From positions 5,828,001-5,892,000 of the forward strand of contig OX597828.1 of assembly GCA_951406725.2 (NCBI GenBank): a stretch of DNA of 64,000 nt. The letters run 5' to 3'. The notes under the pieces were generated by a model. That model searched no databases and had not been told where the DNA came from. It saw only the letters and a list, made by a program, of their open reading frames with translations. Positions 4,199 through 60,645 of this stretch are shown one piece after another. Source of the stretch: Octopus vulgaris. Taxonomy: Eukaryota. Position 1 is the first letter of the stretch. The number at the start of each line of letters is the position of its first letter. The translations under genes were made by a program, and so were the position numbers.

Positions 4199-4715
4199 AA
4201 TTCTTTCTACTATAGGCACAAGGTCTGAATTTTAGTGGGGAGCGGGGAAAATCGATCTCATCGGCCCTAGTACTTGACTGGTATTTAAATAATAATGATT
4301 TCAAATATTTGCCACAAGAGCAGCCGAAAGAAGGGGATTAAGTCGAATACATCGACCCCGTGTTCACCTGGTACTTATTTTATCGACACCGAAAGGATGA
4401 AAGCAAAGATGACCTCGGTGGAATTTGACTCCAGATGTAGCGACGGGCGAAATACCGCTAAACATTTCGCCCAGTGTGCTAACGATTCTGTCAGCTCAGC
4501 GCCCTATAGAGTATTAATAAAATTCTTTCTGCTAGAGGCACACAATCTGAAATTTTGGGAAGGGGGCTAGTCGATTACATTGACCCCAGTGTTTTACTGG
4601 TATTTATTTCATCGACTCCGAAACGATGAAAAGCAAAGTCGAGCTAAGCAGAATTTTAATTCAGAACGTAGCTAAGCATTTCGTCCAACATGCTGAAGAT
4701 TCTGCAAGGTCACTA
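4199..4715 (-). mobile_element. Three tandem SINE family B copies (about 4199-4288 partial, 4296-4505, 4520-4715)
   Basis: Repeated ACTGGTA(C/T)TTA...ATCGAC...GAAAGGATGAAAG motif and shared heads, all on the minus strand. Confidence 0.75.
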
Positions 4716-4761
4716 CTATAATGATGATGATGATAATAGCAATAATAATAATAATAATAAT

Positions 4762-4794
<33 letters not shown>

Positions 4795-4796
<2 letters not shown>

Positions 4797-5825
4797 AGGC
4801 ACAGAAAAAGCTAAGCGCATGAAAACCCGTGCTAAATCTGTGGCCTTAGATATTCTGAATGATAAATGGCAAGAAAAACCTCTCTATGGCAAATACCCAA
4901 AGAGAGCAAATAATGCAGATGTTGACAAAGCCCTGACCCATCAATGGCTAATGACCTCTGGCTTAAAATCTGAAACAGAGGGGTTTATCATAGCAGCTCA
5001 AGATCAATGCCTACCAACAAGAAACTACCAGGCCAACATATTAAAGATCAGAAGCAGTCCAACGTGTCGTGTATGCCAGCAACAAAATGAAACCATTGAC
5101 CATGTAGTCTCCAAGTGCAGTCTTCTAGCGCCTACAGAGTATCTCAACAGACACGATGGAGCTGCACAATATATTCACTGGGTAATCTGCAAAAACCTGG
5201 ATTTGCCCCATGAAAAAAACTGGTAGGAACACAAACCACCCCCAGTGCTTGAAAATGACCACATCTCACTCCTCTGGAACTTCACCATTCAAACTGACAG
5301 AAAGATAGATGCAAATAGGCCAGACATCATATTAAAAGACTTCAAACAAAGAACATGCCTCCTCATTGATATGACTGTCTCAATCGATATAAACGTATCT
5401 GTCAAGACCTACCAAAAACTGAGCAAATATAAAGATCTTGAAATGAAATCAGCAAAATGTGGAACCTGAAGACTAAAACAATACCTGTTGTCATAGGTGC
5501 CCTGGGAATGATAGCAAAAGGGGCTGATAGCTACCTAACTCAGATACCAGGAAACCCCAAAATGGCAGAAATTCAAAAGATAGTGCTCATGGGAACTGCT
5601 CATATCCTACGCAAAATACTTTCTATGTAATCTCAAGGTTTAAAACTAACATAATTTTCGGTTAAAAAAAATTTTTTTTTTAGACATTCATTAGTACAAC
5701 CCCCCCCCCAAATATATGGCACACTATGCACAACAACAACATGAACTTCCAACCTGTTGTCTCTTGAGGTCTCTGGGTGAGACTTGGAGCCAACTTGTAC
5801 AAATATAAAGCAAAAGTCAAACATA

Positions 5826-39997: not shown

Positions 39998-40277
39998 ATG
40001 TATATATGCATATATGTGTATCTTTCTTGCCATGCACGGACGTTTAAACAGGCGGACGCGTTTTTCTTTCTCTCTTCTATCCTTTCTCTTTCGAAAAAAT
40101 GTTTCTCCCAGTGTTCATTATTCCCCACTCGTTCTGGACTAACGACCATCCATATTTGTTTTTTTCTTTTCTTTTGGTTTCCTTGTATGAGTCCATTGCC
40201 ATTTTTGTTCCCGAATTTGACCCCTCATAGATCCTAAGTTTTATTTTAGAATTTATGGGAACAAATGTCTTAGAAGA

Positions 40278-40340
40278 CTTATATTGTCGTCGAATACTCG
40301 AAATGAGGAGTAGATAGACAACCGACAACTGATGAAGGGT
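40278..40340 (+). ncRNA. Candidate non-circularly permuted hammerhead ribozyme (copy A) within a repeat element at about 40020-40430
   Basis: CTTAT-A-TTGTCG ... ACTC-GAAA-TGAG ... CGACAA-CTGATGA-A-GGGT; all three stems can pair. Confidence 0.65.
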
Positions 40341-40454
40341 CCTTTCTCTGCGTTAGCTTGTCCTGCTTTCCCTCTTTTTCTCGTTGTTAAAATATTTCAT
40401 GTTATTTGCTTATTTAACCGTTGATGACGTATGTATATACATACACACACACCT

Positions 40455-42963: not shown

Positions 42964-43324
42964 ATATTAATATTTATTGCCATACTAATATGGCAGTCTA
43001 AATATAAGACTAAAGCTGTCGCTGATTAGCTCCAAGAGGCCATCGCTTCTAGCTAGCTATATGACACACGAACCTGCGTCCATTACAACCTTCGAACAGG
43101 GGAGGTCAGCCGCTTCACCTTGCTAGTCAGACATCCCTGAAACATGTCTGCAGATGTCTGACTAGCAAGATGAAGCGGCTGACCTCCCCTGTTCGAAGGT
43201 TGTAATGGACGCAGGTTCGTGTGTCATATAGCTAGCTAGAGGCGATGGCCTCTTGGAGCTAATCAGTGACAGCTTTAGTCTTATATTTAGACTGCCATAT
43301 TAGTATGGCGATAACTATTAATAT
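42964..43324. repeat. Long palindrome or foldback element, 172-bp arms with a 17-nt spacer
   Basis: 42964-43135 is the reverse complement of 43153-43324 with about five mismatches; lies between TA tracts. Confidence 0.95.
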
Positions 43325-45880: not shown

Positions 45881-47163
45881 CGAGGGGCGTTCAATAAGTA
45901 ATGCCCCTGACCCACTTCCCATAGCAGTAGAGCAACGAAACTTATTAGTCTTTTCCTACATAGGAACCACCCAGAGGTACGCATTTCTCCCATCGTTTGA
46001 TGCGGCTCTGGAGACCGTTTTTGTAGAAGAACCCAGCTTGGTCCTCCAACCTCAACGTGACTTCAGAAATCAAGGCTGCATCATCTGGGAAACGCTTTCC
46101 TTTCAAAAACAACTTCATGATTGGGAAGAGGTGAAAATCAGAGGGTGCAAGGTCAGGAGAGTAGGGGGGATGGGGAAGAGTTCATAGCCATACACCTGTG
46201 CTTCTGATCTGGCGACAAGCGAGTTGTGGACCGGAGCGTTGTCCTGCAGGAGGAAGATGCCTTTGCTGATCTTGCCCCGCCTCTTGATTTTGATAACTTC
46301 TCTTAATTTCCTCAAAAGTGAAGCATAATAGGCTCCTGCAATTGTGGTACCCTTTGCCAGGAAATCTGTCATCACTACTCCGTCCTGGTCCCAGAAGACT
46401 GTGAGCATGACCTTGCCAGCGGAGGGCTGCACCCTTGCCTTCTTTGGAGGGGGTGAGTCACGGTGCTTCCACTACATTGACTGGGCTTTGGTCTCCGGAT
46501 CATCGTGATGGACCCAGGTTTCATCTTGTGTAATCAGTCTTTTGAAAAATTTTGACTCATCTTCTTGGCACATCTCCAAATTCACCCTCGAGCACTCGAC
46601 GCGTTCTTGCTTTTGGAAAGGCGTGAGCAACCTGGGAATCCATCTGGCAGACACCTTTTGCATATGCAAATGGTCATGAATGATAGTTTCCACAGACCCG
46701 GTACTAATCTTGACCTCATGGGCTATTTGGCGAATAATTATGCGTCGATCTTCCAAAATGGCAGCCTCAACTTGACGGACAGATGCCACATCAATGACAG
46801 AAGGGGGCGACCAGATCTGAGAGCTGTTTCCACAGAGTTCCTACCATGTTTGAATTCACGATGCCAACGTTTTACAAAGTCATATGATGGGGCATCATCA
46901 CCATAAGTTACTTTCATTTCATCAAAAGTCTCCCGTGGTGTGCGTCCTTTCAAATACAAAAACCGGATCACTGCTCGACACTCAACAGGCTCCATTTCAC
47001 ACTTGACTCGGTTCAAACACCTGTAAATCAGAAACCACAATTAATTCAGAGCTGTAATTTGCCACTTACTCTATAGAGATATAAATGATTGCACATGCAA
47101 AACTTCAGCTGGATCAAACAACTGTAAGTGGGTCAGAGGCATTACTTATTGTGACGTCCCTCG
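45881..47163 (-). mobile_element. Full-length mariner transposon (about 1.28 kb) with TIRs and TA target duplication
   Basis: TA-CGAGGGGCGTTCAATAAGTAATGCCCCTGACCCACTT at left; AAGTGGGTCAGAGGCATTACTTATTGTGACGTCCCTCG-TA at right. Confidence 0.95.
45945..46995 (-). pseudogene. Mariner (DD34D-type) transposase, disrupted
   Basis: MEPVECRAVIRFLYLKG..., WIPRLLT, ITQDETWV, LLQDNAPVH, SPDLAPSDFHLF-like, RWEKCVPLGGSYVGKD*; frameshifts near 46800 and 46165, TAG at 46472-46474. Confidence 0.92.
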
Positions 47164-58129: not shown

Positions 58130-58270
58130 CAACAACATCGAAAAATATCTTAGGAATGAGAACCGAGGTTTCAAATTTCCCCCAAGACACCTGAAGAAGG
58201 CTAGAGGTATTCCAGCCGAAAAGTTGTGTTAAGGATGAGGACAATATCCGTCAAATGTAAATAATGTAAA
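58013..58270 (+). mobile_element. tRNA-headed SINE-like element with (AAT)n linker and hammerhead-bearing tail
   Basis: A box TGGTGTAGTGG at 58021, B box GGTTCGTTTCC at 58065, (AAT)n, then a hammerhead motif. Confidence 0.7.
58186..58230 (+). ncRNA. Minimal type I hammerhead motif (probably decayed in stem III)
   Basis: GACAC-CTGAAGA-A-GGCT...AGCC-GAAA-AGTT-GTGTT. Confidence 0.65.
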
Positions 58271-58454: not shown

Positions 58455-59240
58455 AAGGGAGAGAGAGAGAGCGAGAGAGAGAAATTCGTACAAACATACA
58501 TATACATGACTGAAGTCAATAGACACCCTTTGTAATCATACCCTTTGAATTTTCAATGCAAGGATTATATTAGGCCTTATTGCTTTACATTAATGTTGTT
58601 AAACTGTTATTAAATTATTTACGGCAAATATACATATATTTATATATTTATTGTTTTGTTATAGTATCTAAATTAATTTATGTTACTTTTTAGGACCTGA
58701 AGAGTGGCTAAATACCTTTAAATTGGAATTATGATGAATTTAAATTTTTTTAAATGAAATTTTGATATTATCTATTTATATATTTAGTCATGTGACGCGC
58801 GTACTCATTTTAATGTTTTGATCTGTTATGGGATTTTTAGAATAATGATTATAAGATACCTAATTAATTTCTATGTGGTTATTATTGATAATATCTTTTA
58901 ACCATTGATGAATAACTAAATAGCGGTTTGTCTCTTAATTCTAAATATATATATAATATATTGAGAATTTTGATTTAGTTTGATAAATAAAATTTTTCCC
59001 CTGTTAGCTTGGAATTATTACATTCCCTAACTATTAATTATATATATATATATATATACATATAAATTAATAAATAAAATATATGCATACATAAATACAT
59101 ATATATATATATATATGAGTACAGGACACCACAAATAGACGTAGAACTCAACGAGAAACGAAAACGTAAAAACAAACATGGAAACGGACTTTTTTAACAA
59201 AGAAAAAACAGAGTACAAGACAAACAATACAAGGAAAATT

Positions 59241-59302
59241 CCCCTTCATCAGCTGTCCCTATTTCGACTCCATGCGTGTTTCGAAGGTAAGGACAGAACA
59301 CG
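59241..59302 (-). ncRNA. Candidate non-circularly permuted hammerhead ribozyme (copy B) within a repeat element at about 59115-59480
   Basis: Minus strand CGTGT-T-CTGTCCTTA-CCTTC-GAAA-CACG ... TAGGGACAG-CTGATGA-A-GGGG. Confidence 0.7.
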
Positions 59303-59534
59303 ACTCGTCGAACTAGCCCTTCCTGCGAAAGAATTAAATAAATTTCCTTTGCAGAGGGGTAAAAACAAGGAAAGAAAAAAATGTGACAAAAACAGGACGT
59401 AAAAACAATACAAATAAAAAACAAAGACAAAATAAAAATACAAATACAAAAAAATACAGTACAATTTATTGCATGACTGAGCGCCCTCGCGTTGTTTCGT
59501 TTCTTTTCTATTCTCCAAGAAAGTTTATATATAT

Positions 59535-60645
59535 CTGTAAGTATAATATGTGACAATTATTCGGTAGCCATGATAAAATTCCGAGTTTAGGATATCGGGG
59601 CGGTAACAACGCCGGCATCTCTTCAGTTATCGGCCATCGAAAAAGGTACTATGGAAATTACCGTTAAAACAAAGGGAAATTACTCTATATCCGCTAAGGA
59701 CACGGTTTCGACGAAGAAATACGTAGGCCCTACAGGGGGTAATTACTAGGCCAGGTTCAATAATCACACCTTGAGCTTCAGGCCCCAAAATGACCACATT
59801 ATCCAGTCATATATGGTCTTTAAAAGATAAAGGTGTCACTTAAAACATGCATTGGAAGATCTTAGCTAAGTATAAGCCCTACACCAACGGCAATGGAATG
59901 TGCGATCTTTGTGATATGGAAAGGTGGCTCATCTGAAAAAGCAGCTTAGACTCTGCCACGAGTCTAAATTCAAGAACTGAACTTTTTGGATCATGTCCAT
60001 ATGGGCCTAAATATTTGTTACGTTTTTGGTCCCCCCCCCCCGAGATTACAGATAGCACTTGCTTTCTATATTGTGTCCACATACAAGCTTTTTATCTCTC
60101 TATATTTTTACTTATATTTCTTATATATTCTTTATATTTTTTTACATAATTATAGAGATATTGTTTTATAGTTTTATTGCTCTTATATTTATTTTACACA
60201 TAATTGTTCTCAATTCTACCTTCCACCCTGCATTTTCCTGTGCGTATATAGACGTGTATATGGAACTTTTTGTGCGAGCGTGAGGATGTGTGCACGTGTG
60301 TGTGTGCGAGCGCGTATGTGGGTATGTATACATTTTTTGGCGAATGTGTGGATGAGCATATGTGTGTTTCAAGTGAGGGTGAATGAGTATATACATATAG
60401 GCGCATGTACGTAGGTGTGCGGGCAAGCATGTGTATGTATGGACATGCTCCTTTACGCGATTACTATGAATATTTTTACTCCCTTAACTTTACTCCCTCT
60501 CCTTACTTAGCGGGCATTCTAATAGCTCTTTTGTCTTAATAACGGTTAATCACACAGTAGTATTTATAGCATTTTTCCGATGGCCCGATAACTGAAGAGA
60601 TGCTGGCACGGGTTTCAACCTCGACATTCGAAACTCGGAGTTATA
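59535..60645 (+). mobile_element. 5'-truncated Penelope-like element: decayed GIY-YIG endonuclease C-terminus flanked by inverted pseudo-LTRs
   Basis: KKYVGPTGGNY*ARFNNHTLSF, TTLSSHIWSLKDKG, WKILAKYKPY...CDLCDMER...LNSRTELF at about 59700-60000; inverted repeats at about 59577-59645 and 60572-60643, each with a CTGAAGA hammerhead core. Confidence 0.8.

Follow-up and report, generated by a model that had tools for sequence, protein, structure and literature searches.

A predicted hammerhead ribozyme with a split core in non-coding Penelope-like repeats of Octopus vulgaris

The window analysed here, a 64,000-nucleotide stretch of the Octopus vulgaris genome, carries on its minus strand a 5'-shortened copy of a non-coding repeat, family B, within which lies a hammerhead-like motif (Table 1). 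A preliminary description had reported three hammerhead strands there, the cleavage strand first, then the GAAA strand and last the CUGAUGA strand (c-b-a), in a presumed retroelement setting. Both claims hold: the strands lie at those minus-strand positions, in an S-G-C order that departs from the nested, circularly permuted order of types I-III, and the motif lies within a Penelope-like non-coding repeat inserted at (TA)n. Stems I and III pair in the window copy as described, the tips of stems I and II are joined through a short linker, and the predicted cleavage position, 3' of U59297, agrees with our re-reading of the strands. The interval 59241-59302 contains the core with both of these stems intact, but the motif does not end there: with its added helices it continues to 59359 and spans 119 nt. 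All hammerhead core letters are present (CUGANGA at C3-A9, G12-A13-A14, and the A15.1-U16.1 and G10.1-C11.1 pairs). Relative to the family majority, the window copy has substitutions at 59343, in hairpin V, and at 59262, in helix P0, each costing one pair.

A descriptor consisting of the cleavage strand, GAAA and CUGANGA in that order, with a stem I of at least 5 bp and a stem III of at least 4 bp, matched two sites in the window: this copy (copy B) and a second, near 40283 (copy A). The same descriptor produced 2 matches in 200 dinucleotide shuffles of the whole window, and the scaffold is therefore not a chance occurrence. An Rfam scan of the window gave no hammerhead family among the 150 of 249 matches listed, all of which were microsatellite-driven miRNA.

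Table 1. Elements of the motif and of its repeat in the window
Feature	Position	Strand	Remarks or basis
Helix IV 5' strand (CCCCU), partner of the strand that follows A9 directly	59355..59359	-	also in nested MFE fold
Hairpin V, separating helix IV from the stem II leader	59323..59354	-	
Stem II 5' strand, leader GAAGG	59318..59322	-	G10.1 = 59322; pairing counts across families
Helix P0 5' strand, counterpart of the type SGC helix linking stems I and II	59307..59316	-	
Kink-turn-like loop, non-bulged side (GA then GU)	59303..59306	-	
Stem III 5' strand and U17 (GUU triplet)	59297..59302	-	predicted cut 3' of 59297; strand reading
Stem III pairing	59302-59298 with 59279-59275	-	U17 = 59297
Stem I 3' strand (6 bp), then the 3-nt linker leading to stem II	59288..59296	-	
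Stem I pairing	59296-59291 with 59258-59253	-	6 bp, extendable to 9 bp
Stem II 3' strand (CCUUC), G12-A13-A14-A15.1, stem III 3' strand	59275..59287	-	GAAA = 59282-59279
Kink-turn-like loop, bulged side (CAUG-GA), and P0 3' strand	59259..59274	-	
Stem I 5' strand and core C3-A9	59246..59258	-	CUGAUGA = 59252-59246
Helix IV 3' strand (AGGGG), earlier taken for stem II	59241..59245	-	
Family B copy, non-coding, 5'-shortened, 3' end in (TA)n	59040..59464	-	tandem unit ~813 nt
Inverted 72-nt tail of family B element at the 5' junction	59463..59534	+	ends in TA repeats; Penelope-like inverted structure
Copy A, decayed, second family, same wiring, other helix sequences	40215..40341 (start approximate)	+	predicted cut 3' of 40283

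Family B is a young repeat, with 2448 candidates in the 2.8-Gb genome, of which the 40 scored are 96-100% identical; the family of copy A has 1478 candidates. Family B copies are non-coding and 5'-shortened, end 3' in (TA)n, and occur as partial tandems and inverted pairs, as has been described for Penelope-like elements (PMC8557442). At four loci with more than one unit (L018, L019, L024 and L025) each unit carries the hammerhead motif; the upstream partial unit at these loci starts inside the motif, at about -35 to +48 from the cut. No open reading frame combining an N-terminal GIY-YIG domain with a C-terminal reverse transcriptase (RT) was found in the family B loci. Across the genome, a loose pattern of GAAA followed 22-28 nt later by CUGAYGA matched 8322 times, as against 247 for the reversed pattern, and many descriptor matches are ordinary type I hammerheads of other elements. 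We assigned 266 anchored copies to 16 motif-defined groups, with 103 of the 266 falling in none.

Families B, F and A share a splice-donor-like motif at the end of their tail (CCAAGTAAGT or close; L019:1041-1052, L154, L038), which sits where longer insertions meet (TA)n and is decayed at 59520-59530 of the window. No splice joint from this motif to the CAG before the leader was found when contigs of three presumed RNA runs and one other run, which show neither ends nor levels, were compared with part of one unit. A splice-acceptor role for that CAG was dropped; the triplet belongs to hairpin V and is absent from families A, C and G2.

The decisive question is which strand supplies the 5' side of stem II. 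The preliminary description had used the G-run after CUGAUGA, giving GGGG/CUUC; this helix can be drawn in the window copy (4 bp, 2 of them wobbles) but shows no covariation, the trailer after CUGAUGA making 20/50 Watson-Crick pairs with CCUUC across 10 natural copies, one per family, which is under the permuted mean of 26.5. A leader strand upstream of the cleavage site, by contrast, makes 50/50 Watson-Crick pairs in the same copies, with five different helix sequences. Permutation with the register re-optimised gave the leader a mean of 32.8 and a fraction of 1e-5 reaching 50; because the most intact copies were picked by hand as representatives, and because the families are related, this and the other permutation fractions given here are not true probabilities and overstate significance. 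Pairs were counted by script on structure-anchored strands, since a cross-family MAFFT alignment misaligned the 5' half; the leader test on majority rows gave 30/35, with the rows of families C and K garbled, and natural copies were used instead.

A larger sample gives the same picture. Stems I and III are intact in 99 unique copies; the leader makes at least 4 Watson-Crick pairs in 70 of these and the trailer in 1, and when wobbles are counted the figures become 72 and 57. In families I and K the trailer makes zero pairs with the strand before GAAA, in J and G2 it makes at most 2 bp, and in A, B, C and F it makes 3-4 bp with wobbles. The Watson-Crick partner of the pre-GAAA strand sits 20-28 nt upstream of the cut site. 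Because it is the leader and not the trailer that supplies the stem II 5' strand, the backbone opens between A9 and G10.1. The covariation of stems I-III proposed as a test is thus present for stems I and III and for the leader version of stem II, and lacking for the G-run version. On this reading the transcript suggested for assay, 59320 to 59230, would cleave poorly or not at all, because G10.1 (59322) and helices IV and V are absent from it. In family B, G8-A9 and the next three bases (59247-59243 on the minus strand) repeat the leader sequence (59322-59318), and this repeat, which the other families do not have, could displace the leader from CCUUC as a possible off state.

Stems I and III are formed by 42/42 and 35/35 pairs in seven family majorities. 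All three helices around the core covary, and the catalytic letters together with an NUH triplet at the cut site are kept in 10/10 families while every helix sequence differs. Sequence comparison places the parts, from 5' to 3', as IV5'-V-II5'-P0-III-cut site-I-II3'-GAAA-III-P0-I-CUGAUGA-IV3'. It also reveals compensatory changes in P0 and stems I-III and, less strongly, in helix IV.

Helix P0 makes 47/50 pairs (permuted mean 39.6, fraction 0.0001), continues stem III across an asymmetric loop and runs directly into stem I, with conserved linker lengths around it. Kink-turns have a 3-nt bulge followed by tandem G-A and A-G pairs between two helices. The loop between stem III and P0 has GA on both strands in 12/14 family majorities, B3 and B4 being the exceptions, and a 3-nt bulge fitting this rule in B2, I, J, K and G2; in the window copy the loop is 4 by 2 nt. 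Hairpin V adjoins the leader in 9/10 copies when the 52 nt before the leader are folded alone. Helix IV, placed next to V, makes 39/45 pairs (permuted mean 30.0, fraction 0.0008); when its partner was sought freely 18-50 nt upstream the count was 46 against a permuted 45.9, which is not significant and makes this the least secure of the helices. It has only 3 bp in family G2. The path A9-IV-V-II has zero linker bases in B1, A and G2, forming on paper a perfect four-way junction, and family I has 1-2-nt linkers around helix IV. The nested minimum-free-energy fold of the window copy (RNAfold) recovers IV, V and stem I and prefers another rod that does not include P0, II or III. Competing inactive folds are likely since nested folding favours this other rod, bearing in mind that nested folding cannot score pseudoknots.

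We judge it likely that the motif is a hammerhead with its core opened at A9/G10.1, cutting itself as a monomer, and that it rides on a non-coding Penelope-like repeat likely copied by a Naiad-type RT. In the hammerhead crystal structure a sheared A9-G12 pair lies next to G10.1-C11.1, with a sharp turn at G8-A9 (PMC11300833, available text). In Penelope hammerheads one more base is retained at the A9/10.1 step (PMC4209133, available text), so this step tolerates insertions. Helix IV would stack on helix V, bridging the A9/G10.1 gap, and because the two would form the other arm of the four-way junction, stem II could stay stacked on the A9-G12 pair and hence on the core. The tips of stems I and II would meet P0 in a closed three-way junction replacing the contact between loops I and II, with the kink-turn bending P0 back from stem III. 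The wiring may be regarded as a circular permutation in which the ends of type SGC are joined through the kink-turn strand and the chain is reopened inside block C. All helices fall within 119 nt, so the assembly into dimers that had been put forward as one option is not needed. If the motif cuts 3' of U59297, RNA of unit length would be freed from tandem transcripts. Linear cut RNA, copied from a fixed 3' priming site, would then yield short insertions that begin immediately 3' of the cut; longer and tandem insertions at (TA)n would come from RNA left uncut or re-ligated into circles.

The c-b-a order itself is already in print, as the preliminary description had suspected: the available sections of Eckert et al. 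2023 (PMC10085705) define type SGC as cleavage strand, GAAA strand, CUGAUGA strand. The opening at A9/G10.1 differs from the six published block orders, and those sections treat the CUGANGA block as uninterruptible. The octopus motif resembles type SGC (HRIMA-1 and the SGC variants) in its block order, its linker of about 3 nt between stems I and II, its intact core and the helix that joins the other sides of stems I and II, which corresponds to P0. It differs in that block C is split, the stem II 5' strand preceding the whole motif instead of following CUGAUGA; in addition its ends exit via helix IV, and it has hairpin V and the kink-turn-like link between stem III and P0. The SGC descriptor given in that source requires CUGAUGA(U)G and would miss the octopus motif. 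The SGC data come, according to the available supplement, entirely from assembled metatranscriptomes, whereas the octopus motif occurs in thousands of copies in an animal genome.

Metazoan non-LTR retrozymes offer a second comparison. As described in the available text of Cervera and de la Pena 2014 (PMC4209133) and Li et al. 2026 (bioRxiv 10.64898/2026.07.22.740005), these have been proposed to derive from Penelope elements, to be non-autonomous and to be copied by way of circular RNA, and they share with the octopus repeats the arrangement of non-coding tandem repeats with one hammerhead per unit. According to the same two sources, the minimal hammerheads of retrozymes and Penelope elements are of type I, have a weak stem III and act as dimers; the octopus motif is not type I, its stem III is full, its split core is pseudoknotted, and the monomer is predicted to be the active form. 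Our search of open full-text literature found type SGC only in Eckert et al., no core opened at A9/G10.1 and no ribozyme fold described in Naiads. Neither this wiring nor a Naiad fold appears in the available parts of PMC13725137, PMC10162972, PMC3088659, PMC6765202 and bioRxiv 10.64898/2026.07.22.740005, the first of which mentions hammerhead variants with additional helices, citing Weinberg 2015.

Naiads are Penelope-like elements that insert at (TA)n and form tandem and inverted 5'-shortened copies; a canonical hammerhead is not reported for them in the available text of Craig et al. 2021 (PMC8557442), whose supplement labels Naiad_Ovul 'HHR_half_core'. Compared by eye, the majority sequence of family G2 (20 copies) matches the final 200 bases of both Naiad_Obim and Naiad_Ovul as given there, and the split-core fold thus appears to close the 3' ends of both published Octopus elements. 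No such core was seen by eye in Naiad_Mmer. At 3 of 10 loci an RT motif precedes the G2 motif by 1336-1459 bases on the same strand; two of those RT frames give RVT_1 matches (E 2e-4 and 1e-5) that fall short of the Pfam cut-off. G2 copies are 82-89% alike and older than family B; the RT remnants, seen with G2 only, are decayed.

Family B shows the same habits, namely (TA)n insertion, partial tandems and inverted 5'-shortened copies with a tail. It carries the fold seen at the 3' ends of Naiad_Obim and Naiad_Ovul, and it differs from these elements in encoding no protein and in its helix sequences. A Naiad-type RT is likely to copy family B, given the shared fold, (TA)n target and element arrangement. 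We found no autonomous partner of family B: RT-motif searches gave 10 and 14 matches, and the ten loci fetched at length were all decayed. In the loci examined, no in-frame match to two REL-endonuclease-like pieces from other loci was present upstream of the motif, a result that speaks neither for nor against a connection with HERO.

Insertion junctions bear on whether the motif cuts. We counted on the reverse strand, where each locus is listed once, the junctions at which (TA)n adjoins the 5' end of a copy. Between about -21 and +10 of the cut there are 86, at least 63 of them at -1 to +10 and at most 23 in the 20 positions from -21 to -2; 80 more lie at +12 to +42. Junction density is highest just 3' of the predicted cut and about five-fold lower 5' of it. 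Start points read by hand at 53 loci fall at +1 (1), +2 to +4 (10), +6/+7 (19) and +8 to +10 (23), making a pile-up that is broad and not sharp and that is helped by TA microhomology at +8 to +10. Structure should not stall the RT at +9, since the partners of those bases would already have been copied. Taken together, the pile-up lends modest support to cleavage. Most copies run through the site, so that cutting would be partial or the template re-ligated. A V-prefixed pattern for copies starting at the cut retrieved 15 loci, mostly from a GUC subfamily, and is too biased to count. GUU, the triplet of the window copy, is a weaker cleavage site than GUC. No example of an active hammerhead with a junction at A9/G10.1 was found in the literature searched.

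These observations could also be explained if the fold were kept as a structure bound by protein or recognized by the RT, which does not cut or cuts only with the help of a protein. The passage of most copies through the site uncut, the breadth of the junction pile-up and the preference of RNAfold for an alternative nested fold would all fit such a role, as would the low in vitro activity of Penelope-element hammerheads (PMC4209133, available text). Yet binding alone would leave the constancy of the catalytic letters and the NUH triplet in all ten families unexplained when every helix changes, as it would the roughly five-fold fall in junction density just 5' of the cut, and we regard this explanation as unlikely. 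Assembly of the active form in trans or between tandem units, for instance of one unit's CUGAUGA strand with another unit's hairpin loop, as in the minimal Penelope hammerheads, for which dimers are described (PMC4209133, available text), would spare a monomer its three mutually crossing helix sets and draws on the fact that units occur in tandem and in inverted pairs. It has to contend with partners that all lie within 119 nt when units are about 813 nt apart, with the absence of a short palindromic stem III, and with conserved linker lengths around P0, which a monomeric cage would require. SGC ribozymes, whose helices cross in the same way, moreover cut co-transcriptionally from single-copy templates (PMC10085705, available text). 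We give this arrangement little credence.

The motif might instead be a plain type SGC hammerhead in which the G-run after CUGAUGA forms stem II following one extra A, and the leader and helix IV belong to a resting fold. According to the available text of both sources, Penelope hammerheads commonly have such an added base at the step from position 9 to 10.1 (PMC4209133), as has SGC-1 (PMC10085705), and the trailer reaches 3-4 bp with wobbles in A, B, C and F and, wobbles included, 4 bp in 57/99 copies. The same helix is impossible in I and K, is limited to at most 2 bp in J and G2, and lacks covariation, its 20/50 pairs falling below the permuted mean; this interpretation is very improbable. 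We consider somewhat more likely than not a broader reading in which the wiring lies outside the six published block orders, combining the A9/G10.1 opening with a four-way junction and a kink-turn cage, is active as a monomer, represents the ribozyme that Naiads supposedly lack, and drives large families of non-coding octopus retrozymes.

If the split-core hammerhead is real, it would be a new wiring of the most studied ribozyme and would break the assumption of an uninterruptible CUGANGA block. It would account for the 'half core' of Naiads, ending the apparent exception of a Penelope clade that spreads without a hammerhead, and it would mean that thousands of ribozyme copies per genome escape the descriptors and Rfam models now in use. 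The port left free at A9/G10.1 would offer engineered hammerheads a new attachment point for switches.

Several further elements lie in the window and at the loci fetched from the genome. Adjoining the family B element is a decayed Penelope-like endonuclease end (59540-59990 on the plus strand, 59626 on the minus strand and 60592 on the plus strand, with frames KKYVG..., TTLSSHIWSLK... and CDLCD), flanked by inverted repeats that contain remnants of an ordinary type I hammerhead; we take this endonuclease end to belong to a Hydra-like clade. The ordinary type I hammerhead of another very common repeat is present at 58191 (plus strand) and at loci L061, L066-L069, L077 and L079, of which L068 and L079 also carry pieces of Penelope-like open reading frames. 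A further type I family was seen at L074, L076, L086 and L087, in the last two behind RT-like frames of a non-LTR element. At 4672-5418 (plus strand) lies an open reading frame fragment of a non-LTR retrotransposon with zf-RVT-like and REL-endonuclease-like parts, 92% identical to a piece at L077. Transposase fragments at 46115-46840 (minus strand) are, judging by their motifs, presumably Mariner-like, and positions 42964-43324 hold a 172-bp inverted repeat whose arms are 97% complementary and 17 bases apart.
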